NCBI GenBank assembly: GCA_042577985.1
Contig: JBHPDI010000001.1
Location: 2,334-66,333, forward strand
Origin: Halobacteriota archaeon
GTDB lineage: Archaea; Halobacteriota; UBA148
Length of the DNA: 64,000 nucleotides
Direction: 5' to 3'
In this document: positions 2,446 to 38,221 of the stretch, in pieces
Position numbering within the stretch: the first letter of the stretch is position 1
Layout: each line of letters opens with the position of its first letter
Notes under the pieces: generated by a model
The model's input: only the letters and a program-made list of their open reading frames with translations
Told to the model about the DNA's origin: nothing
Database searches by the model: none
Program-made: the position numbers and the translations under genes

Positions 2446-2522
2446 TGCGGCGACCGCCCCTCCTCTCTCAATCACATATCTACACAAAAAAACATATATC
2501 TTTTGGTCCCAAATAAACAAAT

Positions 2523-12115: not shown

Positions 12116-13120
12116 ATGATAGGAATGGTCCTTTGCGGTGGTCATGGCAAACGTCTTCGACCTTTTACGTCCGAGATGCCAAAATCACTTATCGAAATCA
12201 AGGAAGGATATACAATTCTGGATAATCAGCTATTATGCTTCTTATCTGCCGGAATCGATCAAGTTGTTTTGTTGACAGGTTATCTGAGCGAAAAAATCAT
12301 CGAGAGGTACGGTTCAGAATACAAAGGGGTGAAAATCGATTACATCGTAGAGGACGAACCTCTTGGAACCCTGAATGCCATAAAAATGGGTCTTGCCTCT
12401 GTGGAAGATGATGTGGTGATTATGAACGGTGATGTCGTTGCAGATCTAAATTTGAAAAAGATGATCACTACTTTTCAAAATTCCGAATTCATTGCAACTA
12501 TGTTCGTCACGAAAATGAAGAGCCCTTACGGAGTAGTAGTTCTTGGTGAGAATAATATCCAGTCTTTCAGGGAGAAGCCCTTTTTAAATCACTACATAAA
12601 TGGCGGCATATATTGTTTTAAAAAAGGTTGTTCTTCATACTTTGATGAATTTGAAATTGGCGATATAGAGAAAACTATATTTCCAATACTGGCGGATTCA
12701 GGCAAACTTGGTTATTATAAAGAAGACGACATGTTTTGGATATCTCTTGATACGACAAAGGACATAGAGGAGGCAAAAAAAGAGTATTCCAATAGAAAAG
12801 ACAAGCCATGGGGTTACGAGAAGATTCTAATCTCTACTGATAAGTATTTGACCAAGGAATTGTTCATTAAAGAAGGTTATAAAACATCATATCATTATCA
12901 CGAGCAAAAGGACGAAACCATGTTTATAATGGCTGGCTCAGGTTACATTAAATTTGAGGATAGAAAAGAGCGCTTTGGTCGGAACGATGCTATTCGAATA
13001 AAACCAAATACATCTCACACAATAGTAGCTTCGGAGAACACAATAATTCATGAGGTATCCACTCCAGATTTAGAGGATACTGTCAGGTTAAAGGATTTTT
13101 ACATTAGGTGGAATACATGA
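12116..13120 (+). CDS. Sugar-phosphate nucleotidyltransferase with C-terminal cupin (mannose-6-phosphate isomerase-like) domain
   Basis: 334 aa. The N-terminus [15 protein letters not shown] is the G-x-G-x-R NTP-transferase signature. The C-terminal [20 protein letters not shown] is cupin-like. Confidence 0.65.
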
Positions 13121-19005: not shown

Positions 19006-20427
19006 ATGAAAATAGCATTAGTTAACGTATTGGACGTTCCAGAGGTACCTCCTATGGGACTGGCATATATCGCCACTTATCTAAGAGAATACGGGAGTTT
19101 TGAAAATACTAAAATAATAGATGCAAATGTAGAGAACGTTTGGGATGGAATTAAAATATATAAACCAGATGTCATTGCAATATCTTCCATGACAATTACC
19201 TATAGTACAGCGATAGAATTGGCAAAAAGAATTAAACAAGAGCAGGACGTTCCTTGTATAATTGGCGGCCCTCATATATCCACCTTACCCTCCTCTCTAT
19301 CTAAGGATTTTGATATGGGTGTTATTGGGGAAGGGGAACAAACAATACTTGAACTTATTCAGTTGTATGATAAAGATAAAGAGTTCAGAAAAGAGAAGTT
19401 AAAAGATATAGGGGGACTTGCCTATCACAATAATGGTAAAGTTAGCTTAACTAAAAAAAGGGATTTAATTCAGCCTTTAGATAAAATTCCTATTCCAGAT
19501 AGGAAATTTCTTGATCCGTCATACTTCAACGAAAAAAGAGTTTTTTTTACTGATAGAATTGGACGAGAAGCCCACATGCTCACTCTTAGGGGATGTCCAT
19601 ACCGTTGCATTTTTTGCTCTACTTCGGCGTTATGGCAAAATGTCACTAGGTACCATTCCGTAGAACACATATGTAGTGAAGTGAATGAACTTATTGATAA
19701 ATATAAAGTCAATGCTATCCAGATTTGGGATGATACTTTCACGATAAATAAAAAGAGATTACAAGAGATATCAGAGGCATTCAAAAAGGAGAAGATAAAC
19801 GAAAAAGTAGAATTTTCTTGCCAACCTAGAGCGAACTTAGTTGATGACAACCTATGTGAAATATTAAAAAACATAGGTGTTACTACAGTGAGCTTTGGCT
19901 TCGAGAGCGGAAGTGATAAAGTTCTTAATTATCTAAAAGCAGGATCGGTTACTGTTGAGCAAAATAAAACTGCTATAAAAACATGTAAAAAACACGGTCT
20001 CAATGTGTTTGGAAGCCTTATGTTTGGAAGTCCTGGTGAGACCTTAGAAGATATCAGACAAACATTAGATTTAATTGACTTCATGGGAGATAATTATGTG
20101 GACTTAATATGGGCTTTTATATCAACTCCATTTCCATCGACTGAATTCTGGGAAGTCGCTAAATCGCGGGGTAAAGTAAATGATGAAGAAATGGATTGGA
20201 ACACCCTAAGCCATAGCTATGCGAAAAATCCCTTTTTATTAGATGATTCTGTGGATAGAGCCGAATTTAAAAGGCTTTTTGAGGAAGCCAAACAAAGAAT
20301 CTATGTATCTTTTGAGAGAAAATATTGGCATCATTCCCTAGGCTGGATGCTAAAACAAGGCATAGTCAATCCAAAAAGAGGATTTGAGGTTTTACTAAAG
20401 ATTCTTAAATTAAAAACTAGTTATTAA
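19006..20427 (+). CDS. Cobalamin-binding radical SAM enzyme (class B)
   Basis: 473 aa. Has the N-terminal B12-binding Rossmann fold (IALVNV...DVIAISSMTITY...IIGGPH) and the radical SAM core RGCPYRCIFCS. Confidence 0.75.
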   Translation: MKIALVNVLDVPEVPPMGLAYIATYLREYGSFENTKIIDANVENVWDGIKIYKPDVIAISSMTITYSTAIELAKRIKQEQDVPCIIGGPHISTLPSSLSKDFDMGVIGEGEQTILELIQLYDKDKEFRKEKLKDIGGLAYHNNGKVSLTKKRDLIQPLDKIPIPDRKFLDPSYFNEKRVFFTDRIGREAHMLTLRGCPYRCIFCSTSALWQNVTRYHSVEHICSEVNELIDKYKVNAIQIWDDTFTINKKRLQEISEAFKKEKINEKVEFSCQPRANLVDDNLCEILKNIGVTTVSFGFESGSDKVLNYLKAGSVTVEQNKTAIKTCKKHGLNVFGSLMFGSPGETLEDIRQTLDLIDFMGDNYVDLIWAFISTPFPSTEFWEVAKSRGKVNDEEMDWNTLSHSYAKNPFLLDDSVDRAEFKRLFEEAKQRIYVSFERKYWHHSLGWMLKQGIVNPKRGFEVLLKILKLKTSY

Positions 20428-25080: not shown

Positions 25081-26027
25081 TGAAGATACTAATAACAGGT
25101 GGAGCAGGCTTCATAGGATGTAATTTTGTTCGATATATGCTAAAGAAGTATCCTACTGAAGAGATTTTAGTCTTAGATAAACTAACTTATGCTGGCAGAA
25201 TAGAGAATTTACAAGACGTTATGGATAAAATAAAGTTTATCAAAGGAGATATTTGCAATAAAAAGGATGTTGAGAAAGTAGGGCATTGCGACGCCATATT
25301 CAACTTTGCAGCAGAGACGCATGTTGATCGCTCGATAATAGATGCAGGCATATTTGTAAAAACGGACATTCTTGGTACTTATAATCTATTGGAGCATGCA
25401 AGAAAGCATGATGTTGAAAAATACATCCAAATAAGTACGGATGAAGTATACGGTTCGATAGAAAAGGACTCTTTTAAAGAAAGTGACATATTAGATCCAT
25501 CTTCTCCTTACTCAGCGAGCAAAGCGGGAGCGGATTTGTTAGTTAAGGCATACTACAAGACTTATGGCGTGCAAGCATTAATAACTCGCAGTTCAAACAA
25601 CTTTGGTCCCTATCAGTATCCAGAGAAGCTAATTCCTGTTCTCATTATCAATGCCTTGTATGATAAACCGTTACCAATTTATGGGGAAGGTAAAAACATA
25701 AGAGATTGGATTTATGTTATGGATAATTGTGAAGCGATAGATTTAGTATTTCAAAAAGGAAAGATGATGGAGACGTATAACATCGGTGCTGGAAATGAAA
25801 AAACGAATATAGAAATTGTAAACTTAATATTGGGGGAAATGAAAAAACCGAAGAGTTTAATAGAATTTGTAATGGATAGGCCGGGGCATGATTTTAGATA
25901 CTCTTTAAATTGCGAGAAAATAAAAAGATTAGGATGGGAGCCTAAGGTAAAGTTTGAGGAAGGGATTGAGAAAACTATTAATTGGTATGCTGAAAATAGA
26001 GGATGGTGGGAAACATTGTTGAAGTAA
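25080..26027 (+). CDS. rmlB: dTDP-glucose 4,6-dehydratase-like (RmlB-type SDR)
   Basis: 315 aa. [59 protein letters not shown] and most other blocks match RmlB. Confidence 0.8.
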   Translation: MKILITGGAGFIGCNFVRYMLKKYPTEEILVLDKLTYAGRIENLQDVMDKIKFIKGDICNKKDVEKVGHCDAIFNFAAETHVDRSIIDAGIFVKTDILGTYNLLEHARKHDVEKYIQISTDEVYGSIEKDSFKESDILDPSSPYSASKAGADLLVKAYYKTYGVQALITRSSNNFGPYQYPEKLIPVLIINALYDKPLPIYGEGKNIRDWIYVMDNCEAIDLVFQKGKMMETYNIGAGNEKTNIEIVNLILGEMKKPKSLIEFVMDRPGHDFRYSLNCEKIKRLGWEPKVKFEEGIEKTINWYAENRGWWETLLK

Positions 26028-26029
26028 CA

Positions 26030-27007
26030 ATGGGTGATAAGTATCCAGGAATCAGTGTCGTAATACCGGCATACAATGGTGAGAAGACAATTGGCAAAAC
26101 GATAGAATCTATTTTGAATCAGAAATATGAAGGAGAAATTGAAATAATTATTGTGAATGACTGTTCAACCGATGGTACCTTAGAAGTTGTTCAGCAGTAT
26201 CCAACAAAGATAATAAATAATGATACGAATTTGGGATTGGCTTATTCTGTAAATAAAGGTGTAAAAGCCTCAAAGAATGATATTGTTTCCGTGATTCATG
26301 AAGATATACTATTGATTGACAAAGAATGGGTCAAGAAATTAGTCCCTTATCTCAAGGAAGGAGTTGCAGTAGTTTCTTCACCTGTAATGTTACCAAGGGA
26401 AATCTATGACACATTTGGTTTCTGGGAGATGGTTTTATTCTCATGGGATTTGAAAGAAGATTATGAAAAAACTGTGGAAATTTTCACAGATGGGTATAAT
26501 GAATTCAAAAACGTCATTTTCAAGAAAGATATTTTCCTAAAGTTTGGAGGATTAGATGGAAATATATACCGGGCAGCTTGTGAGGATGTGGATTTGAGTA
26601 TGAAATTGTTTAAGGCAGGTTATAATATGGTCTCAGTTCCAATCCCAGTTTATCATCTTCATTCTTCTCGTGCAGCTAATCTTTCAAAGATATTATTTGA
26701 ATACCGACCTCGATTATCAGAAGGACAAGGCGTTTTGTTCAGAAAATACGGATTTAGATCATGGGACATAAATAATCAAAATTTCAAAACTATTGCGATT
26801 ATAGCTCTTTTTGTTCCCTTCAACATAATTCGAATAGTCGGAGCACTTTTCATCCTTGCAATAATTTTTGGAAATACGATAAGAGCATTTAAGGTTATGA
26901 AAAATCTAAAAGTTTTTATATTAGTTCCTCTAGTAAAAATTTTAGATTATTTCTTAGAAGTAATTTACTTCTGGAAAGGTTTCCTAACAGGTAGGCAGAG
27001 GAAATGA
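26030..27007 (+). CDS. Glycosyltransferase family 2 with C-terminal membrane segment
   Basis: Has ISVVIPAYNGEKTIGKTIESILNQ...VNDCSTDGT (GT-A DxD context). The start was moved to MGDKY, in frame with the track ORF starting at 26003. Confidence 0.7.
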   Translation: MGDKYPGISVVIPAYNGEKTIGKTIESILNQKYEGEIEIIIVNDCSTDGTLEVVQQYPTKIINNDTNLGLAYSVNKGVKASKNDIVSVIHEDILLIDKEWVKKLVPYLKEGVAVVSSPVMLPREIYDTFGFWEMVLFSWDLKEDYEKTVEIFTDGYNEFKNVIFKKDIFLKFGGLDGNIYRAACEDVDLSMKLFKAGYNMVSVPIPVYHLHSSRAANLSKILFEYRPRLSEGQGVLFRKYGFRSWDINNQNFKTIAIIALFVPFNIIRIVGALFILAIIFGNTIRAFKVMKNLKVFILVPLVKILDYFLEVIYFWKGFLTGRQRK

Positions 27008-27873
27008 AAATAATAATTACAATCCCAGCATATAATGAAGAAGAGAGTATTAGTTATGTGATTAGCGGTATTAAAAAAACGATGGATCAAACTGAATACG
27101 AGTATAAGATAATTGTTGTCAATGATGGTTCGACAGATAACACAGCTAATATCGCAAAAAGTTCTGGGGCATTAGTTTATTCACATCCATATAATTATGG
27201 TCTAGCTGAAACTTTTAGAACTGAAATAGAAAAAGCTTTAGAGGGCAATGCGGAGATAATTGTCCATATAGATGCGGATGGACAATATAGGCCAGAGGAA
27301 ATTCATGAATTGATAAAACCCCTAGAAAATAAAGAAGCTGATTTGGTATTAGGCTCAAGGTTTGCCGGGGTTATTGAAAAAATGCCATTTGTTAAAAAAT
27401 TAGGCAATATTGCTTTTTCAAAAGTAGTTTCTCAAATAAGTGGAATAAAAGTGACAGATGCGCAGACAGGGTTCAGGGCATTTACAAGAGAGATCGCTGA
27501 AAAAATCGAGATTATTTCTACACATACATATACGCAAGAACAGATAATAAAAACAGTTAGAAATAAGTTCAAAGTAAAAGAAGTTCCGATTTATTTCGAA
27601 AAAAGGAAGTCAGGTACGAGCAGATTGATGTCGAATCCAGTTGATTTTGCAATTAAGGCATGGATTAATTTATTGAGAATATATAGGGATTTTGAACCTC
27701 TAAAGTTCTTTGGAGTAGTGGGGTTTGTTTTAATATTCACTGCTATATTAACTTTTTTTTGTAGTATATTCTTCTTGAGGGAACTTTTAGATATAACAGT
27801 TATAGTTCTTATTTTAGCCGGAATTCAGATTATATTATTTGGTTTTTTAGCAGAGATGGTGAAAAAAAGGTGA
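27004..27873 (+). CDS. GT2 polyprenyl-phosphate hexose synthase-like (DPM1/GtrB/AglJ-like) with C-terminal TM helices
   Basis: 289 aa. Has IIITIPAYNEEESI...VVNDGSTDNT...DADGQY and two C-terminal TM helices. Confidence 0.7.
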   Translation: MKIIITIPAYNEEESISYVISGIKKTMDQTEYEYKIIVVNDGSTDNTANIAKSSGALVYSHPYNYGLAETFRTEIEKALEGNAEIIVHIDADGQYRPEEIHELIKPLENKEADLVLGSRFAGVIEKMPFVKKLGNIAFSKVVSQISGIKVTDAQTGFRAFTREIAEKIEIISTHTYTQEQIIKTVRNKFKVKEVPIYFEKRKSGTSRLMSNPVDFAIKAWINLLRIYRDFEPLKFFGVVGFVLIFTAILTFFCSIFFLRELLDITVIVLILAGIQIILFGFLAEMVKKR

Positions 27874-29135
27874 CAAATGACAAAGAGGTGCACAATTTTA
27901 AGGATTTAGATCCAGAACTCTGTACCTTTTGTGGCACGTGCGTAGGTGTATGTCCTCAAAATTCATTAATCGCTAAACACGGAAAAATTTATTCGGTAGG
28001 CAAATGTAAATCTTGTGGACTTTGTTATAATGCCTGTCCTGGTAGAGAAGTTGCCTTCTCTAAATTAAATTCACATATTTTTAAATCTTCACAAAGAGAT
28101 AGATATGTCGGTGTTTACAAATCATTATATGTGGGACATTCAAGAGATGTAAAAATAAGAAATAATGCATCTTCTGGAGGTGTCGTAACATCATTATTAA
28201 TTTTTTTATTGGACAAAGGTCTAATTGATGGAGCTATCGTTGTTTGCATGAAATATAAAGAACCATGGAATTACGAAGTAAAAATTGCGAGAACAAAAAA
28301 AGATATTTTGAAAGCTTCACAATCTAAATACTCTTTAGTTCCTCTAAATGCTATTTTAAGTAAAATAAGGAAAGAAGATGGTAATTTTGCCCTTGTGGGT
28401 TTACCTTGCCATATCCATGGTATTAGAAGTCTTCAAATGATGGGGTGGGAACACAGTGATAAGATTAAATATTTAATTGGTCTATTTTGTGGTTTTAATA
28501 TGCATTTATCCGCAACAAATCATCTTATCAATAAATTAGGAGTTGAAAAAGGAGATATACTAAGTCTCCAATATAGGGGGGGCAATTATCCAGGTGGTTT
28601 CCTTATAAAAACAAAAAATAATAATGAAAAATCTCTTGAGAAGTTTTATTATAATCTATTAAACCTAATGTATGTTCCTAAGAGGTGTCTACTTTGTGTG
28701 GACCTTATGAATGAACTTGCTGATATCTCGGTAGGTGATGCGTGGATTAAAGATATTGATAAAGATGGATGGTCAACAGTTATAGTTAGAACAGAAAAAG
28801 GAGAAACCTTGTTTAAGGATGCCATAAAACACAATTATTTGGGCTATAAAAAAATTTCAAGAGAAGATCTTTTAAAATCACATTCACATTTAATAAGATA
28901 CAAAAAAATAAAAGTTTTTATCAGATTATATTTAAGCAAGAAAAAACCGATATATGATTTGGAGTATCCTAATATGAAGATACATGAATATATACCGGGC
29001 GCTCTATTCTTTTATTCAGTTAAAATTCTGGGCAATGATTATATTAAAAAAGTTATAGGTTTTTTGCCACTAAAATTATTTGGGATTATAGCACATTTAG
29101 GCAAATACATAATAAGAAAGGGAGAGCTAGAATGA
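27870..29135 (+). CDS. FrhB/FdhB-like protein (coenzyme F420 hydrogenase/dehydrogenase beta-subunit family) with N-terminal 2x[4Fe-4S] ferredoxin domain
   Basis: 421 aa. Has CTFCGTCVGVCP and CKSCGLCYNACP ferredoxin motifs followed by an FrhB-like FAD/F420 domain. Confidence 0.6.
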   Translation: MTNDKEVHNFKDLDPELCTFCGTCVGVCPQNSLIAKHGKIYSVGKCKSCGLCYNACPGREVAFSKLNSHIFKSSQRDRYVGVYKSLYVGHSRDVKIRNNASSGGVVTSLLIFLLDKGLIDGAIVVCMKYKEPWNYEVKIARTKKDILKASQSKYSLVPLNAILSKIRKEDGNFALVGLPCHIHGIRSLQMMGWEHSDKIKYLIGLFCGFNMHLSATNHLINKLGVEKGDILSLQYRGGNYPGGFLIKTKNNNEKSLEKFYYNLLNLMYVPKRCLLCVDLMNELADISVGDAWIKDIDKDGWSTVIVRTEKGETLFKDAIKHNYLGYKKISREDLLKSHSHLIRYKKIKVFIRLYLSKKKPIYDLEYPNMKIHEYIPGALFFYSVKILGNDYIKKVIGFLPLKLFGIIAHLGKYIIRKGELE

Positions 29136-30763
29136 GCGAAAATAGCTATCGAACTTATGTTTTAAATAATATGCCACGCCTGATAAGTCAGCTTGACCGG
29201 GACAAAAATTCTCTGACATATGGCTGTTTCGACAGAAACTATTGGCATTATAAGATAAGAGACTTTCCTTCAATAATTCTTCAACAAGGTTCTTTAGCTT
29301 TAGCCTTACTTTATTCAAATAACTTCAAAGGAAATATTTATTATAAGAACAAAAAAATTGAGGAATGGACTTTAGCATCCCTCTATTTTTGGATGGAAAA
29401 CCAATTAAAGGACGGTTCTTTTAATGAGTATTGGCCAAATGAGCACGGATATCCTCCAACGGTATTTTCTTTATATACCACCTCGGAGACATATAGGCTA
29501 TTGCATGCTTTTATTGACAAAAAAGACGGCTTAGAAAGGGCCTTAATTAAATCGTGCAACTTTATCTCTAAACATGATGAAAAGGGAGCACAGAACCAGG
29601 AAATAGCTTCTATTACCTCGTTATATAGTGTGTATTTATCAATCAAAGAAAAATGGTTATTAAATATTATTGATGAAAAAGTGAAGCAAATCCTCAAAAG
29701 GCAATCACATGAAGGATGGATCTCTGAATACGGTGGTGCAGATATTGGGTATCTGAGTGTATCACTGGGTTATCTCGCTGAGTATTATAAAATGAGTCAA
29801 GATAAAAGAGTATTTCCTGCTCTAAAAAGTATTGTAGATTTTATGCAGTTCTTTATACATCCTGATTCTACCTCTGGGGGGGATTATGGGAGTAGAAATA
29901 CTGAATACTTTCTTCCAAACGGTTTAGAGATTTTAGCAGCAGATTATTCGTTGGCAGGTGCTATAGCTGATAAATTATTAAATAATTTAGAAAAATATCA
30001 AACTCTTCCTAACACAGTAGACGAGAGATATCTTTCTCATTATTTCTTACATTCTTATGTTGGTGCACTACTTAATTATAAACCCAGAAGAGATATCCCA
30101 AAGCTTCCGTGCGAGATAAAATGTGAGAAATATTTTAAAGATGCGGGTTTATATGTTCTAAATAATGGAAATTATTATGCTATTTTAGGATTATCAAAAG
30201 GCGGAGTTTTAAAAGTTTTTTCGCAAGGAAAAGAAATTCTAAATGACTGTGGTTATATGGCAAAAATCTCTAAAAATAAACTCATTACAACTAATTGGGT
30301 TGATCAGAGTTATATAAAAGAAAAGAAAGGGAATACTTTTATCGTTTCTGGTGATTTCCACTCGATATCACAATATTTACCCACCCCTTTAAAGCATTTC
30401 TTGCTGAGAGGTGCGTCGAGTATATTTGGTAAGCGACTTATACCTATTTTGAAAAAGCGACTAATAACTAGAGATATAAAAGTGCCAACTACTTTTAAAA
30501 GAACGGTGACTTTTCATGGTAAAAGAATAATTATCGATGATATTATTACTTCTGAAAACGTATTAAAAGAAGTTTCTACATCCGATGGTTTTTCTTTCCG
30601 ATATGTTCCATCATCTAAATATTTTCAAATTAACGAAATTAAGAGAATAAATATAGATAAAATTTTCCAAAATATTAGGAAAATTGAAATCAAAAAGGAG
30701 GTAGACTGCATAAATGGAAAAGTCTTTATTGCAAATGAAAATCACAAGAAAAGAAATTCATAA
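29132..30763 (+). CDS. Hypothetical protein, no motif recognised (possibly polysaccharide-modifying)
   Basis: 543 aa soluble ORF, translationally coupled to the FrhB-like gene (4-nt overlap). Confidence 0.4.
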   Translation: MSENSYRTYVLNNMPRLISQLDRDKNSLTYGCFDRNYWHYKIRDFPSIILQQGSLALALLYSNNFKGNIYYKNKKIEEWTLASLYFWMENQLKDGSFNEYWPNEHGYPPTVFSLYTTSETYRLLHAFIDKKDGLERALIKSCNFISKHDEKGAQNQEIASITSLYSVYLSIKEKWLLNIIDEKVKQILKRQSHEGWISEYGGADIGYLSVSLGYLAEYYKMSQDKRVFPALKSIVDFMQFFIHPDSTSGGDYGSRNTEYFLPNGLEILAADYSLAGAIADKLLNNLEKYQTLPNTVDERYLSHYFLHSYVGALLNYKPRRDIPKLPCEIKCEKYFKDAGLYVLNNGNYYAILGLSKGGVLKVFSQGKEILNDCGYMAKISKNKLITTNWVDQSYIKEKKGNTFIVSGDFHSISQYLPTPLKHFLLRGASSIFGKRLIPILKKRLITRDIKVPTTFKRTVTFHGKRIIIDDIITSENVLKEVSTSDGFSFRYVPSSKYFQINEIKRINIDKIFQNIRKIEIKKEVDCINGKVFIANENHKKRNS

Positions 30764-30821
30764 GAAACCAAAAATTTTTTATGCCATGAAACTTGCTGAA
30801 TAAAGACAAAAGGATATTAAA

Positions 30822-32354
30822 ATGTCAGATATTATACTAATCCAACCGAAGGCAGGGGTTTATGAGATAACTAGTATCAGGATGCCCTTGCCATGTTTGT
30901 CGATTGCCGCCCTCCCGGATCGAGATGGCTATAATGTAAAAATTATAGACCAAAGAACAGATAAAAATTGGCAATCAAACCTTATCAGTTCTCTTAAATC
31001 GAAACCCATTTGTGTTGGTGTGACCAGCATGACAGGCCCACAGATTGGGTTTGCTCTGGAAGTATCCAAGTGTATTAAGGATAACTCAGATGTTCCTGTG
31101 GTGTGGGGTGGAGTCCATCCTTCTCTGTTACCTGAACAAACACTGGAAAACGAAAATATAGATATAGTTGTGGTGGGGGAAGGCGAAGCCACTTTTTTTG
31201 AGTTAGTTGCTGCATTGGAAAAAGAAAAGCCTCTGGAAGATGTGAAAGGAATATGGTATAAACAGGATGGCAAAATTAAAAGAACTCCTCCAAGACCATT
31301 TATGGATTTGAACGCCCTCCCTGATATGCCCTATCATCTTGTAGATGTGCATAAATATTCTGCCTTTGATCTAAGCGGAACAGGAGAACAGGCCCTTTCG
31401 GTTATGACCAGTCGGGGCTGTCCATATGGTTGCAGCTTTTGTTATAATACGGTTTTTAATAAACGTAAATGGAGAGCCTTAACGGTAGAGAACTCATTAA
31501 AACGGATAAAAAATGTTGTGGACAGTTTTGGAGTTAAGTCGATTTACTTCCCTGAGGATAATTTTTCATTCGATCTTAAGAGATTTGAAGGGATTATCAA
31601 AGGAATTATAGATGAAGGGCTGGACATAACTTGGGGTTCTCAGGGGATCAGGATGGACTCTGTTGGGAAGATGAGCCATGAACTTCTATCACTAGCTGAG
31701 AAAAGCGGCTGCAAGAATCTGGATATTGGTATCGAATCAGGATCACCGAGAATCCTGAAACTAATAAAGAAAGGAGCAACTGTTGATCAGATTGTAGCAG
31801 GGGGTAAAAAACTTTCCGAGCATGATTTTATAGTAAAATATAATTTTATGATGGGGATTCCAACAGAGACAAAAGAGGAAAGGAAAGAGTCGTTGGACCT
31901 TGGCTCAAAGTTAATCAAAGAGAATAAGAACGCATATATGCTGTTTCATATTTATACACCATTTCCTCAGACTGAACTCTATAAGTTGGCATTAGAAAGC
32001 GGTTTTAAATCTCCGTCCACACTCGAAACATGGGCGAAGTTCAACTATCTCGACTGGACATATAATTACGATTCGTGGTTATCCGATAAAGACATAAAAA
32101 TTTTAGGCAATTTGTCTTTCATATCTCGCCTTGCTAACAGGAATATAAGGTATAAAATTACAAACACATTTATTAAAACAATGTTTGACTTGTATTATCC
32201 GATAGCCAAGTTTAGGCTCGATCACAATTTCTATTATTTGTTTATCGAAAAAGCAGTGGAAAAGAGTATGAGACCGGTATTACTCAAATATATGTCACAA
32301 ATTGGTAAAAAATATACGAATGAACCTTCAGACATTTCCGCTAGAGATGGTTAG
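30822..32354 (+). CDS. Cobalamin-binding radical SAM enzyme (class B), second copy
   Basis: 510 aa. Has a B12-binding N-terminus (ILIQPK...VGVTSMTGPQI...VVWGGVHPS) and the radical SAM core SRGCPYGCSFCYN. Confidence 0.75.
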   Translation: MSDIILIQPKAGVYEITSIRMPLPCLSIAALPDRDGYNVKIIDQRTDKNWQSNLISSLKSKPICVGVTSMTGPQIGFALEVSKCIKDNSDVPVVWGGVHPSLLPEQTLENENIDIVVVGEGEATFFELVAALEKEKPLEDVKGIWYKQDGKIKRTPPRPFMDLNALPDMPYHLVDVHKYSAFDLSGTGEQALSVMTSRGCPYGCSFCYNTVFNKRKWRALTVENSLKRIKNVVDSFGVKSIYFPEDNFSFDLKRFEGIIKGIIDEGLDITWGSQGIRMDSVGKMSHELLSLAEKSGCKNLDIGIESGSPRILKLIKKGATVDQIVAGGKKLSEHDFIVKYNFMMGIPTETKEERKESLDLGSKLIKENKNAYMLFHIYTPFPQTELYKLALESGFKSPSTLETWAKFNYLDWTYNYDSWLSDKDIKILGNLSFISRLANRNIRYKITNTFIKTMFDLYYPIAKFRLDHNFYYLFIEKAVEKSMRPVLLKYMSQIGKKYTNEPSDISARDG

Positions 32355-32433: not shown

Positions 32434-33354
32434 TTATTCCTGCGATTTCATCTTCCACATAAATGGAATCCCAATCAATGATACCAGCCAATACCTAACA
32501 ATAGAAAATAAGATGCCAACACCCAACAATTTTTCTGGTGCAGCAAACCCTGAGAAAAGAAAAATAATGGCCGCATCACGAGTACCCATACCGCCCAGTG
32601 TAACTGGAATCAATCCAATGAAAATTGCAATTGGGATATTAGCCATTGTGAAGAACAAGGGAACGTTAATTCTCAATGCATAGAAAAATATTAGGGTTTG
32701 TAATATTGATATACTCCAAATTAAAAGAGAATAAGAGAGAATAATCGAAAATACTCTTTTATCTTTCGTTAGTAATTTCGTAGAAAGAATCAGGTTTTGA
32801 ATTTTTTCATTCCATGAACTCTTTATCGGCAAGCGGAAATTAAAACCAGCGTGTGCAAGAAGAAATATTGCAATTATGAAAATGAAGATGCTTAACGCAA
32901 TAAAAGCTAACTCATATTTCTTACAAAACGTCATGCCAATTAAAGAAAACAAAACAAGTGTAAGAAAATCAAACATTCTCTCGGTTATTACGCTGCCAAC
33001 TGTTTTACTTGCTGGAATCTTATTTTTTAAATAATATGCCTTGATAACATCTCCTGACTTGGAAGGAGTAATCGAAGTTAAAGGAAGAGCAGCCATTATC
33101 AAGTTAAGGCATTCTTTGTATGGTAATTTATAGCCCATTATTTCTAAGATTATTTGCCATCGTTTTGCAATGATAGGTATGATCAAAAATAACAATAAAA
33201 GCGCAATAAGCAGATAAAAGAGATTAGCGTGCGATAATACATCCATAACCGAATAAAAATCTATTTTTGTGAAGATGAAGTAGAAAATGGCTATTGTGAT
33301 GGCTAATACAATAACCGATTTCAATACTGAACTGCTGCTCCTTTTCAATGTCAC
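32434..33354 (-). CDS. Flippase-like domain membrane protein (UPF0104 / LPG-synthase-TM-like)
   Basis: 306 aa with ~8 TM helices and the conserved RW...P.RSGD-type loop (IAKRWQIILE...TPSKSGDVIKAY). Confidence 0.55.
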   Translation of the reverse strand: MTLKRSSSSVLKSVIVLAITIAIFYFIFTKIDFYSVMDVLSHANLFYLLIALLLLFLIIPIIAKRWQIILEIMGYKLPYKECLNLIMAALPLTSITPSKSGDVIKAYYLKNKIPASKTVGSVITERMFDFLTLVLFSLIGMTFCKKYELAFIALSIFIFIIAIFLLAHAGFNFRLPIKSSWNEKIQNLILSTKLLTKDKRVFSIILSYSLLIWSISILQTLIFFYALRINVPLFFTMANIPIAIFIGLIPVTLGGMGTRDAAIIFLFSGFAAPEKLLGVGILFSIVRYWLVSLIGIPFMWKMKSQE

Positions 33355-33460: not shown

Positions 33461-35218
33461 TTGTATGATAACAATAACGAAAGGGGAGGATGTATGACAA
33501 AATCAATTCCAAAGATAGTATGCGGAGCATTTACGATGTATTTATCCTTGGTGATTTTGGTAGGTTATTATATGGACCACTTTGGTTTTTCGCTCACGAT
33601 TGGCAGAATTATTTTGCCTTTACTTGCAATTTCTATTTTCTATATTGGTTTTAAATTTTTTAAGCATACTCCAATCTCTTACGAATTCGATAAAACATAT
33701 ACCCTAATATTTTTTACAATATTAACTGTATCATTCATCTATTTTTTGTTGCCTTCTCTACCCTCTTTCCTGCCTTTAGGCAGTAATGTGGACGCCCCCC
33801 AAGCGTATGCAATTACAAAATTAATTGCTGATACCCGTTCCTTGTTGTTGCACCAAGATTTTATTTGGTTGGATTATCAACCGGTATGGAAGGTCTACCC
33901 ATTTGGGTTGCATCTAAATGTTGCAGTTATTTCGTGGATTTCAAATATACTCCCTATCAAACTTATATATCCATTTATGTGTTTGATTATTTCAATGTCT
34001 ATTGCGGGAGTATATGGAATAACAGTGGAATCAAAAATAACCGATAACAAATACCTTGCTGCCATTCCAAGTTTTTTACTGGTAACTTTTGTTCTTCTTA
34101 ACCTCCAGATGAGGTTAGGGGGCCCATTCCCACGACTCTTTGGTGCTTTTTTGATAATAATGTTCGTGTGGTTCCTGATGGATTATGTCAAAAGACCTTC
34201 ATTATTATCGGTGATTCCGCTGATTTTAATTGAATGTGCCGTGATTAATAGTTATCCCACTTTTTCAATAATACCCATTGCAATGTTTACTTTTGCATTA
34301 ATTTTTGCGATAGATCAAAAAAAGATAAAAATACCTCATTTCATTTTGTTTAATGTTATTGTACTTCTGTTGTCCATTTCTTATGTCATCTATTTTTATA
34401 ACACGACTGCATACCTTACAAATACTGGAAATCTAGATGTAATAAACCAACCTAGCACCATGGGAATACAAATAATGCCATTCAATCCCTGGTTAAGCGA
34501 TCAGTCCATCTATGTGAACTTGGCTAACATGGCTGCAACGTTATTTTTTGTTGTTTCCATTCCGGGGTTTTTATTACATTTTACTGACAAAAAAGCCAGA
34601 GAACTCATATTATTTTATAGCATTGTATCATTACAAATATTGGCATTCCTAGTTCTTGTTTTTCTTATTAACATGCGATTGATGCCAATAAATAATACAA
34701 TCTATGTGCTGATGTACCCTGCCGCTATTGCTATATTTCTTGGGATAAAAAAAATTTTTGATATTGAGAATATATCAAAGAAATTTAGTGCAATTGCATT
34801 TGTCTGCATGATTTTATTAACATTCGCAACTGCGCCTGTTATGTCTCTCGGATGTTCGACAGGTCTAACAGGCAGAGAGGTGGGTATTACTCAAGACGAA
34901 TATGATACTGCTCTGTGGGTTAAAAATAATATTGGTGAAGATGTTTCAGTTTTAGCAGATCCGGGGGCACAGTTCTTCTTCTTTGTAGCATCAGAACAAA
35001 AAAACATAACATTAATATATTCCTCTTATGAACACTTGAATAAAGAATTTAGAGAATGGCAAACGCAAGCGAAATCCGGTGATATTGTAGTAGTATTAAA
35101 TATATATGCAGTTAGTTCGGCCATTGTTTTACATCAGGATAATACCGTGGACATAGATAATACTACATATGAGATTTTATATCCTAAGGGAGTTTGTTAC
35201 GTTTTGAGGTATATCTAA
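33461..35218 (+). CDS. Large polytopic membrane protein with C-terminal soluble domain, GT-C-fold glycosyltransferase-like
   Basis: 585 aa with >10 TM helices and a ~130-aa hydrophilic C-terminal domain, an architecture like the ArnT/PMT/AglB class. No catalytic motif was confirmed. Confidence 0.35.
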   Translation: MYDNNNERGGCMTKSIPKIVCGAFTMYLSLVILVGYYMDHFGFSLTIGRIILPLLAISIFYIGFKFFKHTPISYEFDKTYTLIFFTILTVSFIYFLLPSLPSFLPLGSNVDAPQAYAITKLIADTRSLLLHQDFIWLDYQPVWKVYPFGLHLNVAVISWISNILPIKLIYPFMCLIISMSIAGVYGITVESKITDNKYLAAIPSFLLVTFVLLNLQMRLGGPFPRLFGAFLIIMFVWFLMDYVKRPSLLSVIPLILIECAVINSYPTFSIIPIAMFTFALIFAIDQKKIKIPHFILFNVIVLLLSISYVIYFYNTTAYLTNTGNLDVINQPSTMGIQIMPFNPWLSDQSIYVNLANMAATLFFVVSIPGFLLHFTDKKARELILFYSIVSLQILAFLVLVFLINMRLMPINNTIYVLMYPAAIAIFLGIKKIFDIENISKKFSAIAFVCMILLTFATAPVMSLGCSTGLTGREVGITQDEYDTALWVKNNIGEDVSVLADPGAQFFFFVASEQKNITLIYSSYEHLNKEFREWQTQAKSGDIVVVLNIYAVSSAIVLHQDNTVDIDNTTYEILYPKGVCYVLRYI

Positions 35219-35240: not shown

Positions 35241-36542
35241 TTAAAATATTCGCACCACTGTGAAAGATAAACATAGTCCTGCAAGAGCAAATGCAATGCC
35301 AACTATTATACTTCTTTTGATATATGTGTAGTGTTTGCTATTATAAATTAAGTATTGAGTTATTAGTGCGCCACCAATCAATATCAAGGCAATATCTGCC
35401 ATGTATATGTAGGGATATTTATCTAATGCCCCAATGTATGATTGGTAGAACTGAGGTGCCACAACTATTGTTATTATAACCCAAGATGCAGAAAGATACA
35501 TGATTATTTTTGATTTCCACTCCTCAAATTCAAATCCTTCTAACAATAAAAAAATTGGAAGTATAAAACCTACATACCGTAGCTGACCGTATCCATAAAC
35601 AGGAAATATGCTAATCAATAAATAACCTGCAACTCCCCATGCTAAAAGTGCTGCAATTTTATCTTCATTTTTCTTATAATACGTCCACATAACCAGCAAC
35701 AATAGCGCAGTGACCACAAAATAACTGAGCTGCGCATATACAGAGATATCTCCCCATTTTATTCCTGGATAATGATGCCAATATATAGAACGAACATCGG
35801 TGTTCATCAAGCCGTATGTAATTTTAGTGTACCAATTCCATCCTATATAGGTTATTCCGCCTGCCAATAAGGGAAATATATTCTTGAATTTACGTTTGAA
35901 TATGAAGTCATATAAAAATAGTCCCCCTGCAACAACAAAGCTAAAACGAGTAAGAATACCTATAGAATACAAAAAGCAGCTTATCGTATAGTTTTCTTTT
36001 AAATAACAATAAACCAAAGCTAAGCATAAAACATAACCTAGGGGTTCAGATAAACCAATAGTTCCCCATGCCACAATAAAAGGATTTAGAGTAACTACAA
36101 TTGTGCATAATTTAATCTTTGTTTTTTCTTGAAAAAGTTCAGATGAGGCCAAATATGCAAGAATTGGAGTTGCTACAATTAAACAGAAACTATTGATTAG
36201 TAGCATTGACTCCTTAAAAGGAAAAATCAATGACAAAATCCTAATGCAAAAAGGATAAAATGGTGGGAATCCCACAAATTCTGGTATATAGTATCCATTT
36301 TGAGCTATTCCCAAATAAAACCAACCATCCCACACAGATGCCAAATCACTAAGGGCATCATGTGGGTAATAACCCCAACCCACGCCACCATAACCAAGCG
36401 TAGAAAAAACAATAAACATGCGAGCCAAATGCAAAAAAAAGGAAATGATTATTAAACCAAGTAAAAACTTATAGTCCTCTTGAAATTTCTTTTTTCCTTT
36501 CTCAATAACCCTGCTTATCATATGATTTATGGCATAAATCAT
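35241..36542 (-). CDS. Polytopic membrane protein, GT-C-like (DUF2029/GT87-type candidate)
   Basis: 433 aa with ~11 TM helices and aromatic-rich loops. Confidence 0.35.
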   Translation of the reverse strand: MIYAINHMISRVIEKGKKKFQEDYKFLLGLIIISFFLHLARMFIVFSTLGYGGVGWGYYPHDALSDLASVWDGWFYLGIAQNGYYIPEFVGFPPFYPFCIRILSLIFPFKESMLLINSFCLIVATPILAYLASSELFQEKTKIKLCTIVVTLNPFIVAWGTIGLSEPLGYVLCLALVYCYLKENYTISCFLYSIGILTRFSFVVAGGLFLYDFIFKRKFKNIFPLLAGGITYIGWNWYTKITYGLMNTDVRSIYWHHYPGIKWGDISVYAQLSYFVVTALLLLVMWTYYKKNEDKIAALLAWGVAGYLLISIFPVYGYGQLRYVGFILPIFLLLEGFEFEEWKSKIIMYLSASWVIITIVVAPQFYQSYIGALDKYPYIYMADIALILIGGALITQYLIYNSKHYTYIKRSIIVGIAFALAGLCLSFTVVRIF

Positions 36543-36565: not shown

Positions 36566-38221
36566 TTACCCTTCCTTTCTACCACATATTAAAATATCAC
36601 AACCTACTCCTAGTAACTCCAATCTTTTTTCTAATCCTTGTAAAAGAGCCAATAGCCTTTCAGAATTTAGTAAGGCGATAAAGGGCGATAAAACAAAAAG
36701 AGTTGAGACATGATAGACGTTGACGTCATTGTCTTTTAGAAGTTCTTTCAACTCCTTTGGACTGAATATTCTTAGATGTTGTTCAGCATAGTTCCGTCCC
36801 TTCCCAAAATGATCCCAAAAGAACTCTATTAGCGACCAGAGAGAGTTTGAATTGGGCATAGTAATGCTAACTCTCCCGCCTGGTTTTAGTATGCCTGACA
36901 CCTCGGCAATCATTCTCTCTGGCTCTGGTACATGTTCTATTATATTTCCCAATATTGCAACATCGAAAGTATGGGGCTTAAATGGCAAGTTTTGAGCATC
37001 TGCAACAATAAAATTGGTTTTTTCATTTCCTCTACTTCTCGCATATAGAACACCGGGGCGACTCAAGTCAAATCCAACTACTTTACCCCCAAATTCTGTG
37101 CACTTACGTGAAATCACACCAGACCCGCACCCCATATCTAATATGAGTTCATTTTGTCCAATTTTAGTGTTTTCAAATAAATTCTTTATCCTTCTTCTCT
37201 GCCAATGCCTCTGTATAAGAATATCTGAATTATATGCGATTTCATCAATGTCCCCCTGTACCTCTTCATATCTTTCCCTCAAACCTGTGCCAGTGATTTC
37301 TGAGATGAAAAAGCCCTTAAGCCCAAGACAGTCAACAGAAGTGTTCATAACTCTAACTATTACTGCAAATGCTACGCTAGCACTGATCGGAACTCCAATC
37401 AAACTAAACGTTTCTGATATCCCAAATTCTTGTATTCCAAGCCCAGCTGAGGTGAAAGGTACCATTGATAGGGCAGTAAGAAGTGGGTTTAAAAACAAAG
37501 ACTTCAATATACTGAGATCGATACCAAGTGCCCTGCCTATCATAAACCACTCAAAACCCCTTAAAATCCATCCTAAAAACGAGATTGAAAGAATCATGGG
37601 AATAAAGCCCCTAACCTTAGCTGATTCTTTCTGTACTTTCAGAATGAAGCTGCCTATTCTATGCTTCTCAAGTATCTTTCTGATTCTGTCTGGGATATGT
37701 ATGTTGAAGAAAGTTAAAGCAACCACAATAAGAAGTGCGACTATCATTAGACCAATCGAAAGAACTCGAAGGATATAGCCCGGTATGCCTATCAAGCTAA
37801 GTATCATTAACACAGCTACCGCGCCAAATACGACCTTTAATATGAGGTCGAACACATAGCAATAAGAGATAGTAGATAACGCAGCCTCTGGTTTAATCCC
37901 TCTTTTTTTAAGTGGAACCAATGAGTACATATATCCCGATCTTGCCGGAGTAAAATCTGAGACTATCATCCCACACATATGTGCCCAAAAAACTTGCCCC
38001 AGCCGTATTTTCTTATCCACCTTTTTAAAAATTATATGTAATCTGTATGCCATAATAAAATTGTTCAAGAAATAGGCTAATACAGCTAAAGTCAAAAATA
38101 GAAAATTAAGGTTTGTAAGAATTTCAGCGACTTCCTCGAAATCTGTGGTGTACACAATTGCTATTACAATTGCAATCCCAATGAGGATCTGGATTATAGT
38201 ATATCCTTTATTTTTCATCAC
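36566..38221 (-). CDS. Fusion protein: N-terminal flippase-like (UPF0104) membrane domain + C-terminal class I SAM-dependent methyltransferase
   Basis: 551 aa. Residues 1-330 contain TM helices with the FTPARSGYMYSL loop. Residues ~360-551 contain MTase motif I (LILDMGCGSGVIS) and post-I (VVGFDLS...). Confidence 0.6.
   Translation of the reverse strand: MMKNKGYTIIQILIGIAIVIAIVYTTDFEEVAEILTNLNFLFLTLAVLAYFLNNFIMAYRLHIIFKKVDKKIRLGQVFWAHMCGMIVSDFTPARSGYMYSLVPLKKRGIKPEAALSTISYCYVFDLILKVVFGAVAVLMILSLIGIPGYILRVLSIGLMIVALLIVVALTFFNIHIPDRIRKILEKHRIGSFILKVQKESAKVRGFIPMILSISFLGWILRGFEWFMIGRALGIDLSILKSLFLNPLLTALSMVPFTSAGLGIQEFGISETFSLIGVPISASVAFAVIVRVMNTSVDCLGLKGFFISEITGTGLRERYEEVQGDIDEIAYNSDILIQRHWQRRRIKNLFENTKIGQNELILDMGCGSGVISRKCTEFGGKVVGFDLSRPGVLYARSRGNEKTNFIVADAQNLPFKPHTFDVAILGNIIEHVPEPERMIAEVSGILKPGGRVSITMPNSNSLWSLIEFFWDHFGKGRNYAEQHLRIFSPKELKELLKDNDVNVYHVSTLFVLSPFIALLNSERLLALLQGLEKRLELLGVGCDILICGRKEG

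Follow-up and report, generated by a model that had tools for sequence, protein, structure and literature searches.

The 64,000-nucleotide stretch of DNA analysed here (the window) carries archaeal 23S rRNA, 5S rRNA and RNase P RNA and is therefore archaeal. Within it, Pfam identifies a glycan island with a Wzx-type flippase, a GT4, two GT2s, NDP-sugar enzymes and a UDP-Glc/GDP-Man dehydrogenase, in agreement with the setting described in a first-pass annotation. That annotation had singled out three genes of the island as a candidate module: one for an FrhB-like protein, one for a 543-aa protein (U543) and one for a B12-binding radical SAM enzyme. The features relevant to this study are as follows.

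13108 to 14418, plus strand: enzyme of the UDP-glucose/GDP-mannose dehydrogenase family (Pfam UDPG_MGDP_dh N, central and C domains)
19006 to 20427, plus strand: second B12-binding radical SAM protein, 473 aa (Pfam B12-binding and Radical_SAM)
26003 to 27007, plus strand: GT2 no. 2, 334 aa (Pfam Glycos_transf_2, 4.9e-30)
27004 to 27873, plus strand: GT2 of predicted polyprenyl-monophosphate-sugar synthase class, 289 aa (Pfam Glycos_transf_2)
27870 to 29135, plus strand: FrhB-like flavo-iron-sulfur protein, 421 aa, GTG start (Pfam)
29132 to 30763, plus strand: U543, uncharacterised 543-aa protein (ORF; fold from a model)
30822 to 32354, plus strand: B12-binding radical SAM protein, class B, 510 aa (Pfam B12-binding and Radical_SAM)
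32434 to 33354, minus strand: flippase-like membrane protein, LPG_synthase_TM / TIGR00374, 306 aa (Pfam 2.5e-47)
33461 to 35218, plus strand: polytopic membrane protein, 585 aa, candidate GT-C, with a C-terminal soluble domain

According to the ORF coordinates, 4-nt overlaps join the two GT2 genes (26003-27007/27004-27873), the 27004 GT2 gene and the FrhB-like gene (27004-27873/27870-29135), and the FrhB-like gene and U543; the stretch from 26003 to 30763 is an operon-like run of four translationally coupled genes. A T-rich gap of 58 nt separates U543 from the 30822 radical SAM gene. The co-directional order of the trio, the overlap of its first two members and the presence of another B12 radical SAM gene 8 kb upstream (19006-20427, with the Pfam domains) were all correctly described before. 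For the FrhB-like protein, U543 and both radical SAM proteins alike, homologues are numerous (lowest E-values 0), indicating that these four ORFs are real genes and not chance ones. The 26003 GT2 has hydrophobic segments at its C-terminus, weak NCBIfam matches including AglG (a glucosyl-Dol-P glucuronosyltransferase) and a counterpart of 81.5% identity in the closest genome (L001, 84% identity).

Gene neighbourhoods of U543

We compared 57 U543-related loci flanked on each side by 3 kb or more, counting genes within 3 kb of U543. A GT2 was found in 49 loci, a flavoprotein in 34 (18 FrhB-like and, in place of it, an FMN nitroreductase in 16) and a flippase-like gene (GtrA or LPG-synthase-TM) in 27, while 23 loci (about 40%) had no flavoprotein at this distance. 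Nearly all of the flavoprotein genes (31/34) lay within 300 bp of U543, and in the clade that includes the window nearly every U543 adjoins one, the stop codon of one gene often overlapping the start codon of the next. On the basis of these counts, GT2, flavoprotein, U543 and flippase-like gene form a conserved unit. The idea that the FrhB-like protein and U543 are a functional pair gains from an adjacency that recurs from ANME-1-like archaea to Lachnospiraceae, where compact five-gene Gtr-like modules contain both genes and no radical SAM. In some loci (L035, L036, L049 and L023), a U543-nitroreductase pair is found away from any glycan cluster.

For the 27004 GT2, the best NCBIfam matches were AglJ (3e-41), PpgS, Dol-P hexose transferase and ArnC, and among 43 GT2s adjoining U543, AglJ and PgfS were matched by 40 and ArnC by 37, in every case below the equivalog cut-offs. 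Judging by these matches, the U543-adjacent GT2s are predicted to belong to the polyprenyl-P-sugar synthase class (AglJ / PpgS / Dol-P-hexose transferase / ArnC / PgfS-like). The 32434 protein scores above the TIGR00374 cut-off and is a candidate flippase for a lipid-linked sugar; its orthologue lies directly 3' of U543 in L001, L085 and L086. This gene and the putative synthase gene, the neighbours that say most about function, did not appear in the first-pass annotation.

GT-C-type neighbours recur across the loci (PMT_2, STT3, DUF6541 and TPR-bearing membrane proteins). In the window, Pfam, NCBIfam and an AF2 model (pLDDT 47.8) did not demonstrate a GT-C transferase: the 585-aa protein encoded at 33461 has no Pfam or NCBIfam match and only 9 homologues, and the syntenic L001 protein is 34% identical to it. 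A UDP-sugar 6-dehydrogenase family gene occurs near U543 in a minority of loci (10/80), a Methanocalculus locus having two copies directly upstream, and AsnB-type amidotransferases occur in 15/80; both gene types hint at a uronate. From its family assignment, the 13108 dehydrogenase could possibly supply an NDP-uronic acid.

The trio as first proposed is not a conserved unit, given that a B12 radical SAM lies within 3 kb of U543 in only 9 of the 57 loci, and a flavoprotein together with a radical SAM in only two. Both radical SAM proteins of the window carry a CxxxCxxC motif, and the 30822 protein scores below every NCBIfam cut-off. The radical SAMs found beside the pair in different genomes share about 30% identity with each other and with both window copies and are mutually non-orthologous. 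In L001 the place of the 30822 gene is taken by the flippase-like gene, and the nearest homologues of the 30822 protein (at most 62% identity) belong to other glycan clusters without U543; the 19006 protein has an 81% identical orthologue in L001, about 8 kb from U543. The 30822 radical SAM is an accessory gene outside the conserved core, and each of the two enzymes may serve the island as a separate, exchangeable tailoring activity (C-methylation, for example) and not as an obligate partner of the pair.

U543 and its flavoprotein partners

U543 itself has no match in Pfam-A or NCBIfam, as expected from the first-pass annotation, which had recognised no motif in it. It is not an orphan but a member of a large uncharacterised family of about 2,260 clusters at 50% identity, found in 438 GTDB species, and its homologues match the Pfam family PF25840 (Ulvan_lyase_N). 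In the confidently predicted structure (pLDDT 92.5), an (alpha/alpha) toroid at the N-terminus is followed by a beta-sandwich at the C-terminus, and structure comparison with this model matched dermatan-sulfate epimerase 1 and the PL8/12/15/17/33/35/40 lyases, which shows that U543 shares its fold with polysaccharide lyases and uronyl C5-epimerases. Identity to these relatives is about 10%, and a family profile of U543 found no match among PDB sequences. That U543 might prove to be a well-characterised lyase had been allowed for: the fold is indeed of lyase type, but the family is not a characterised one.

The N-terminus of U543 is a well-predicted helix of the modelled fold (pLDDT 85-94), and we therefore assign it no signal peptide; no membrane anchor was found either. 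Among family sequences, N155 is conserved in 78/78 and Y207 in 77/78. Their spacing of 52 residues in the sequence resembles that of the carboxylate-neutralising Asn N245 and the catalytic Tyr Y305 in the PL40 enzyme Uly1040 (PMC12915356), a hint at the active site. The family alignment contains no conserved His after residue 330, and the His base and metal-binding His of the PL39/PL40 beta-domain are not kept. Many of the conserved residues are polar or charged, which would fit a sugar site.

The FrhB-like protein bears the two Fe-S motifs previously ascribed to it (CTFCGTCVGVCP and CKSCGLCYNACP, both Fer4) together with FrhB_FdhB_N (2e-22) and FrhB_FdhB_C (1.8e-37), arranged as an N-terminal 2x[4Fe-4S] ferredoxin, an FrhB N+C core and a C-terminal extension of about 90 aa. 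Solved relatives of this core hold FAD plus a [4Fe-4S] cluster. The closest of them, 8RIU_B (8.6e-36), the F420-reductase zeta subunit of Ethanoperedens CODH, is built of these three parts as well. Against the NCBIfam FrhB and FpoF models, the window protein stays far under the cut-offs (133.9 versus 331.5). FrhB-like/GtrA fusions occur in some bacteria, supporting a membrane location.

FrhB-like and nitroreductase partners never occur together in one of the 57 loci, and the two types interleave among closely related U543 proteins in the tree, implying an equivalent flavin-dependent job. For the nitroreductases, the highest-scoring matches are BluB, the C-terminal domain of FbiB and NfsA, in all cases far below the cut-offs. 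Orthologues of the FrhB-like partner are also present in bacteria that are not known to make F420, Lachnospiraceae among them. Given these bacterial partners, and the nitroreductases that take their place in 16 loci, F420 cannot be essential to the chemistry of the module. The suggested delivery of electrons from F420H2 is possible at the window locus but not required by the family.

A proposed tailoring step and its alternatives

We lean towards a role of the conserved module in tailoring, close to the membrane, a sugar on polyprenyl (here dolichyl) monophosphate. The 27004 GT2 would make a Dol-P-sugar from a nucleotide sugar, on which cytoplasmic U543 would act, the substrate most likely being a hexuronate and the reaction most likely starting with removal of the proton adjacent to the carboxylate. 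The FrhB-like flavo-Fe-S protein would then reduce what U543 has formed. In the version we prefer, elimination of the 4-OH by U543 would yield a 4,5-unsaturated uronate (a 2-alkoxy-acrylate) as the compound that is reduced, the net product being a 4-deoxy-hexuronate. MurB and the C-terminal domain of FbiB use flavin to reduce enolpyruvyl groups, and by analogy with them this specific 4-deoxygenation is offered tentatively, as a rather doubtful detail of the scheme. The flippase-like 32434 protein would carry the product to the other side of the membrane, for a GT-C-type transferase to attach to a surface glycan or protein. Taken as a whole, such a tailoring module, instead of the FrhB/U543/radical-SAM trio, is our best explanation, and we hold it with as much doubt as confidence. 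The conserved unit would then represent an uncharacterised tailoring step for a lipid-linked, probably uronic-acid, sugar.

U543 could instead be a cofactor-free uronyl C5-epimerase of DS-epi1-like or AglQ-like type acting on a lipid-linked hexuronate (GlcA to IdoA or ManA to GulA, for example), with the flavoprotein catalysing an optional, separate step and not reducing its product. The 23 loci without a flavoprotein imply that the U543 product does not always need reducing, which fits an epimerase better than a dehydratase. However, the near-constant adjacency in the window clade and the in-place exchange of flavoprotein types suggest tighter coupling, and the DS-epi1 His/Tyr/His triad could not be mapped on U543, whose beta-domain has no conserved His; we consider this reading unlikely. 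It is quite improbable that the FrhB-like protein serves as F420H2-driven electron input for the B12 radical SAM enzyme or enzymes, the trio carrying out radical chemistry on a sugar with U543 in a substrate-binding or auxiliary role. In its favour, radical SAM chemistry depends on an electron donor of low potential, and 8RIU_B, an F420 reductase, relays electrons and uses its ferredoxin domain to dock onto a partner. In L085 the FrhB-like gene shares a 4-nt overlap with a B12 radical SAM gene, and L005, L053 and L055 also combine radical SAM, flavoprotein and U543. Against this stand the rarity and non-orthology of the nearby radical SAMs, the absence of the 30822 gene from L001, the Lachnospiraceae-type modules that have the FrhB-like partner but no radical SAM, and its replacement by nitroreductases without an Fe-S relay.

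The lyase fold and the Ulvan_lyase_N matches of its homologues would also suit a true polysaccharide lyase trimming the polymer of the island among unrelated glycan genes, like AlgL in alginate operons, and operons for exopolysaccharides often include lyases and hydrolases. We regard this as very unlikely, as U543 lacks a signal peptide or membrane anchor, its partners are a putative monosaccharide-lipid synthase, a flavoprotein and a candidate flippase and not polymerases or exporters, it occurs in the compact Lachnospiraceae modules, and it has not conserved the catalytic His that the nearest lyase families carry in their beta-domain. The toroid also aligns with terpene cyclases, and U543 and the flavoprotein might modify the lipid carrier and not the sugar, for instance by holding the polyprenyl chain in a cyclase-like toroid and saturating or otherwise altering an isoprene unit. 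This seems far-fetched: the cyclase alignment covers the toroid only (248 residues), whereas lyases and the epimerase cover both domains, the polar and charged conserved residues fit a sugar site, and undecaprenyl phosphate, which usually serves as carrier in bacteria, is not known to be saturated in U543-carrying groups such as Lachnospiraceae.

Comparison with known systems

No described pathway matching the gene set was found in the literature, in line with the first-pass annotation. The closest are three-component Gtr/Arn-type systems, such as ArnC-ArnD-ArnE/F-ArnT, DprE1/DprE2 (arabinan) and pentofuranose systems, for which auxiliary enzymes acting on lipid-linked sugar donors have been described (PMC11127046). 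They share with the U543 modules a GT2 synthase, a small flippase (GtrA or, here, LPG_synthase_TM), a GT-C nearby and one or more extra enzyme genes between synthase and flippase. In the U543 modules, unlike these systems, the extra genes encode a lyase/epimerase-fold protein and an FrhB-like protein or nitroreductase, neither type being described there.

The two-domain architecture of U543 is that of DS-epi1 (PDB 6HZN) and of the PL8, 12, 15, 17, 21, 33, 35, 39 and 40 lyases, from which U543 differs in its low identity, cytoplasmic location, smaller size (543 aa), lack of a conserved beta-domain His/metal site, biosynthetic context and coupling to a reductase. Toroid-fold uronate epimerases are also known from archaeal N-glycosylation (PMC12624080). 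These, AglQ of Haloferax volcanii and VNG1058H of Halobacterium salinarum (372 aa), are by description single-domain proteins of the AGE/cellobiose-2-epimerase type and, unlike U543, have neither a beta-sandwich nor a flavoprotein partner.

Members of the FrhB family (FrhB, FpoF, the N-terminal half of Fsr, the 8RIU zeta subunit and the ferredoxin-dependent BciB/HCAR) have 2x[4Fe-4S] followed by the FrhB core, as in the window. The window protein differs in scoring below every equivalog cut-off, in having no hydrogenase, Fpo or Fdh partner genes nearby, in having bacterial orthologues and in being replaceable by nitroreductases; its C-terminal extension is also longer than that of the 8RIU zeta subunit (about 20 aa, residues 350-370; PMC11493965). 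Finally, reduction of a 2-alkoxy-acrylate, the chemistry we propose for the flavoprotein, would have parallels in MurB (enolpyruvyl-UDP-GlcNAc) and in the nitroreductase-fold C-terminal domain of FbiB (dehydro-F420-0), the latter being, with BluB, among the best if low-scoring matches of the nitroreductase partners.

Gene layout of the window

The first-pass annotation had proposed a sugar-modifying, F420H2-linked trio made up of an FrhB-like protein, a 543-aa protein (U543) and a B12 radical SAM enzyme. ORF reading and Pfam searches confirmed the corresponding genes and their domains, and the features on which the analysis turns are the following:

19006-20427 (+): second B12 radical SAM gene, with B12-binding and Radical_SAM domains (Pfam)
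26003-27007 and 27004-27873 (+): two GT2 genes upstream of the FrhB-like gene, joined by 4-nt overlaps
27870-29135 (+): FrhB-like gene, with two Fer4 motifs, FrhB_FdhB_N and FrhB_FdhB_C (Pfam)
29132-30763 (+): U543 gene, overlapping the FrhB-like gene by 4 nt
30822-32354 (+): B12 radical SAM gene, 58 nt after U543, with B12-binding and Radical_SAM domains (Pfam)

Since 4-nt overlaps link the successive genes, the four genes of 26003-30763 are translationally coupled. They are surrounded by a large glycan island in a window that is archaeal by its 23S rRNA, 5S rRNA and RNase P RNA. A protein identical to U543 is recorded for a 'Halobacteriota archaeon', and the nearest representative genome by U543 is a Methanophagales (ANME-1) MAG, at 84% identity. 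A scan of the window with sigma-70 promoter and terminator models gave counts equal to those of shuffled sequence, such bacterial models being uninformative for an archaeon.

Several other features of the window were recorded along the way. The archaeal RNase P RNA lies at 2176-2469 (-), and between the 23S (1-1608) and 5S (1894-2015) genes Rfam calls a tRNA at 1721-1842 (+) that spans 122 nt and scores 47.7 bits. ARAGORN, in contrast, found no tRNA in the whole window, and the Rfam call may represent an intron-containing or atypical archaeal tRNA of the rRNA operon. A 33-nt tandem repeat at 9129-9257 (3.9 copies, 96% matches), which encodes about four copies of an 11-aa unit, sits within a 420-aa ORF at 8324-9586 (+). 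Just ahead of the glycan island, which starts at 12116, the lowest-GC part of the window (10001-12000, 31.5%) holds only short ORFs, including minus-strand genes for two small hydrophobic proteins (11177-11847). Beyond the U543 genes, the 551-aa product of 36566-38221 (-) fuses a second LPG_synthase_TM domain to a class I SAM methyltransferase, echoing the methyltransferase links and fusions of U543 and nitroreductase partners elsewhere (the homologue P0251 and the loci L002-L004).

Neighbours of U543 across genomes

The conservation of this arrangement was assessed in 80 U543-bearing loci from different species, in which ORFs were called, neighbours clustered and clusters annotated; counts within 3 kb refer to the 57 loci in which U543 is flanked by at least 3 kb on each side. 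A GT2 of one sequence cluster lies within 3 kb of U543 in 49 of these 57 loci, and within 300 bp in 32. A flavoprotein is found within 3 kb in 34/57 (31 within 300 bp) and is either FrhB-like (18/57) or an FMN nitroreductase in its place (16/57), never both (0/57). Flippase-like membrane proteins occur within 3 kb in 27/57, as GtrA in 13 and as LPG_synthase_TM in 14. The real unit is thus formed by GT2, the FrhB-like protein (or nitroreductase), U543 and the flippase-like protein. The proposed trio stands in part: the FrhB-like protein and U543 belong to the unit, and the B12 radical SAM enzyme is an accessory, found within 3 kb in 9/57 loci (together with a flavoprotein in 2/57) and absent from the corresponding position of L001, the locus of the nearest relative.

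Individual loci illustrate both the constancy and the flexibility of the unit. L001 reads GT2, GT2, FrhB-like, U543, followed by the flippase-like LPG_synthase_TM protein (LPG-TM) on the minus strand, and the locus L085 reads radical SAM, FrhB-like, U543, again followed by LPG-TM on the minus strand. In Methanocalculus (L086) the order is AglB, two UDP-sugar dehydrogenases, a nucleotidyltransferase, GT2, FrhB-like, U543 and LPG-TM (minus strand). The Lachnospiraceae module is a compact five-gene run of a large membrane protein, GT2, U543, FrhB-like and GtrA, and in some bacteria the FrhB-like and GtrA proteins are fused. Orenia marismortui carries U543, LPG-TM, nitroreductase and GT2, and a Phyllobacterium megaplasmid GT2, U543 and LPG-TM only. 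In a neighbour-joining tree of U543, FrhB-like and nitroreductase partners interleave among close relatives in the window's clade; a more distant clade is without a flavoprotein and is accompanied by AsnB-type amidotransferases, methyltransferases and, in six loci, B12 radical SAM enzymes. Literature searches returned nothing describing this gene set, their lone mention of F420 and nitroreductase being a gene count in Klebsiella K loci.

Not all U543-nitroreductase pairs belong to obvious glycan clusters: those of L035, L036 and L049 (from Anaerolineae) and of L023 do not, showing that the pair can also exist by itself, perhaps with a different role there. The pairs of L036 and L049 adjoin a DeoR regulator and a ribulose-phosphate 3-epimerase, and that of L023 an L,D-transpeptidase and ZnuA.

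Both radical SAM proteins of the window match PF02310 and PF04055 and carry CxxxCxxC motifs (GCPYGCSFC and GCPYRCIFC). NCBIfam assigned neither to a characterised class B subfamily (BchE, HpnJ, PhpK, GenK-type methylases, AprD4 and others), the best scores being 151-156 for BchE against a cut-off of 481. L001 lacks the gene corresponding to 30822, its flippase-like gene directly following U543. The nearest homologues of the 30822 protein, at no more than 62% identity, reside in other glycan clusters without U543, which hold GT2, AsnB, UDP-sugar dehydrogenase, methyltransferase, PMT_2 and more B12 radical SAM genes; the unannotated neighbours in these clusters were checked and are not relatives of U543. 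The radical SAM proteins that do flank U543 form subclades of their own (51-87% identity among L050, L072, L073 and L077, 45% between L063 and L064) with only about 30-37% identity to the window's copies, and that of L085 is 30-31% identical to each window copy. The absence from L001, the low identities and the homologues without U543 together indicate that the pair has no fixed B12 radical SAM partner and that these enzymes are frequent, exchangeable residents of such islands.

Runs of paralogous B12 radical SAM genes amid GT2, AsnB and GT-C genes were also seen in archaeal, CPR and other uncultured lineages (four to five in L081 and L082, which span 17.5 kb, five in L053, four in L063 and three in L077), a pattern suggesting that glycans are extensively tailored by radical chemistry there.

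For the FrhB-like protein, the Pfam matches to FrhB_FdhB_N (2e-22) and FrhB_FdhB_C (1.8e-37) are both above gathering scores, and the scores against the FrhB/FpoF/FdhB equivalogs remain well below their cut-offs (TIGR03289, 133.9 vs 331.5; FpoF, 89.9 vs 475). No hydrogenase, Fpo or Fdh catalytic-subunit gene lies beside it, its neighbours being glycan genes only. Among solved structures, it is closest to 8RIU chain B (E 8.6e-36). This chain, the zeta subunit of CO dehydrogenase from Ca. Ethanoperedens, is an F420 reductase with the same layout, which makes the use of F420 plausible in this archaeon. Orthologues of the FrhB-like partner are also present in bacteria, Lachnospiraceae among them, that are not known to make F420. 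For the nitroreductase partners, the best scores are against BluB, the C-terminal domain of FbiB and NfsA, all far below cut-offs. What the two partner types have in common is a flavin-dependent redox step acting on the module's substrate. No clear transmembrane segment was found in the C-terminal extension of the FrhB-like protein, on which we do not rely.

In three bacterial loci (L022, L024 and L030) a 348-aa DUF362 protein is encoded directly after the FrhB-like gene and may also take part in the redox step.

The remaining partners point to lipid-linked glycosylation. The GT2s adjacent to U543 match the class of polyprenyl-monophosphate-sugar synthases (PgfS and AglJ in 40/43, ArnC in 37/43, PpgS and Dol-P hexose transferase in 34/43), and the window GT2 at 27004 has the same match list. 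All these matches, for the window protein and the 43 others, are below equivalog cut-offs, so the assignment holds at class level only and does not identify the sugar. The flippase-like protein of the window is of the TIGR00374 type, with GtrA in related loci, and both presumably flip a lipid-linked sugar. GT-C-type membrane transferases recur near U543 in related loci, as PMT_2, STT3/AglB, DUF6541 and TPR-bearing proteins. Two polytopic membrane proteins are candidate GT-C-like transferases of the window's island, one of 585 aa (33461-35218, +) and one encoded at 35241-36542 (-). The former gave no family match, has only nine homologues among 5.8 billion proteins and yielded an AF2 model with a pLDDT of 47.8, unusable for fold search; the latter weakly matches the AZOBR_p60025 cell-surface glycopolymer formation family.

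The U543 family and its predicted fold

U543 belongs to a large unnamed family without an assigned role. We found at least 876 homologues among the scored candidates, 2,262 clusters at 50% identity (E <= 1e-3) and 438 species loci in GTDB representative genomes, distributed over Halobacteriota, DPANN archaea, Firmicutes (many of them Lachnospiraceae and Christensenellales), CPR bacteria, Chloroflexota, Planctomycetota and others. In one homologue, P0251, U543 is fused to a methyltransferase. The window protein has no match in NCBIfam or in our local Pfam-A, a copy without PF25840; many homologues carry a precomputed PF25840 match, named Ulvan_lyase_N in the contig tables. Scans of homologues against the same local Pfam gave only sub-threshold toroid matches (Pec_lyase, DUF6288, C5-epim_C, GH88, GH127 and LANC_like), and PDB sequence searches with U543 alone and with a family profile returned nothing.

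The predicted model of U543 has the two-domain fold of the (alpha/alpha)n toroid plus beta-sandwich lyases (PL8/12/15/17/21/33/35/39/40). A pyruvyl-transferase role, which the first-pass annotation had named as an example, is unsupported by this fold. In 78 family members, the most distant at about 31% identity, the conserved residues of U543 include E104, N155, E199, D204, Y207, Y252, R255, N256, T257, D297, K356, R457 and D470. The PL40 ulvan lyase Uly1040 shares the toroid and beta-sheet architecture; in its toroid Asn245 and Trp246 neutralise the uronate carboxylate and Tyr305 is the acid, and in its beta-domain His485, His487 and Mn2+ supply the base (PMC12915356). N155 and Y207 of U543, kept in 78/78 and 77/78 members and 52 residues apart, may, by their sequence spacing, correspond to the Asn...Tyr pair of the lyases and the epimerase DS-epi1, such as N245 and Y305 of Uly1040 (PMC12915356). 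No counterpart of the PL39/PL40-type base His and metal-binding His was found, no His past residue 330 being at least 93% conserved among the 78 members. The N-terminal helix of the fold is well predicted, and neither the window protein nor the family consensus has a signal peptide or hydrophobic leader, which argues against a secreted or periplasmic, polymer-degrading location. The basic helix 419-444, with a net charge of +7 and an unremarkable hydrophobic moment, might bind the membrane, a point on which we do not rely.

Proposed pathway and comparison with known systems

The evidence best supports a three-component pathway of the Gtr/Arn-like kind into which a tailoring step has been inserted. 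GT2 would make a Dol-P-sugar, U543 and the flavoprotein would alter the sugar on the cytoplasmic side of the membrane, the flippase-like protein would translocate it and a GT-C enzyme would pass it to the acceptor. AsnB-type amidotransferases amidate uronates in O-antigen pathways. Their presence in 15/80 loci, together with UDP-sugar 6-dehydrogenases near U543 in 10/80 (at 13108 in the window, and two in Methanocalculus) and a fold class dominated by uronate lyases, DS-epi1 and unsaturated-glucuronyl hydrolases, suggests that the substrate is a uronate.

For modules containing a flavoprotein, the window's among them, the chemistry that we favour, as an inference, is elimination followed by reduction, in which U543 would take the C5 proton and expel the 4-OH to give a 4,5-unsaturated uronate, a 2-alkoxy-acrylate that the flavin would then reduce. 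A serious alternative is that U543 simply epimerises C5, a reading favoured by the 40% of loci that have no flavoprotein within 3 kb. Returning to elimination and reduction, a specific version that we regard as rather unlikely would make of U543 and its interchangeable flavoprotein partner a previously undescribed deoxygenation system of two enzymes. In it, a lyase-fold enzyme turned to biosynthesis would dehydrate a polyprenyl-phosphate hexuronate to the 4,5-ene, and a flavin ene-reductase would saturate this to a 4-deoxy-hexuronate donor. GT-C enzymes would then transfer the sugar to glycans of the cell surface, in hundreds of species of archaea and bacteria that include ANME-type archaea and gut Lachnospiraceae.

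The module would be a new form of lipid-linked sugar tailoring, centred on a large uncharacterised family. If it works as proposed, a widespread three-component glycosylation scheme gains a new tailoring step for lipid-linked donors, in which an enzyme of lyase/epimerase fold is coupled to a flavin reductase. This would also give a role to a family of about 2,260 clusters at 50% identity in 438 GTDB representative species that has had none, and a biosynthetic role beyond energy metabolism to FrhB-like proteins, including those of bacteria not known to make F420. Furthermore, the proposal predicts that an unusual sugar, a uronate in deoxy or epimerised form, is displayed at the cell surface by ANME-related archaea, DPANN and CPR organisms, and gut Firmicutes.

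The proposed reduction is modelled on MurB and FbiB, which carry out flavin-dependent reduction of 2-alkoxy-acrylates, and ArnD and DprE1/E2 are auxiliary enzymes that work on lipid-linked donors. Further precedents are provided by other auxiliary enzymes acting on such donors (PMC11127046) and by the toroid-fold uronate epimerases of archaeal N-glycosylation (PMC12624080).
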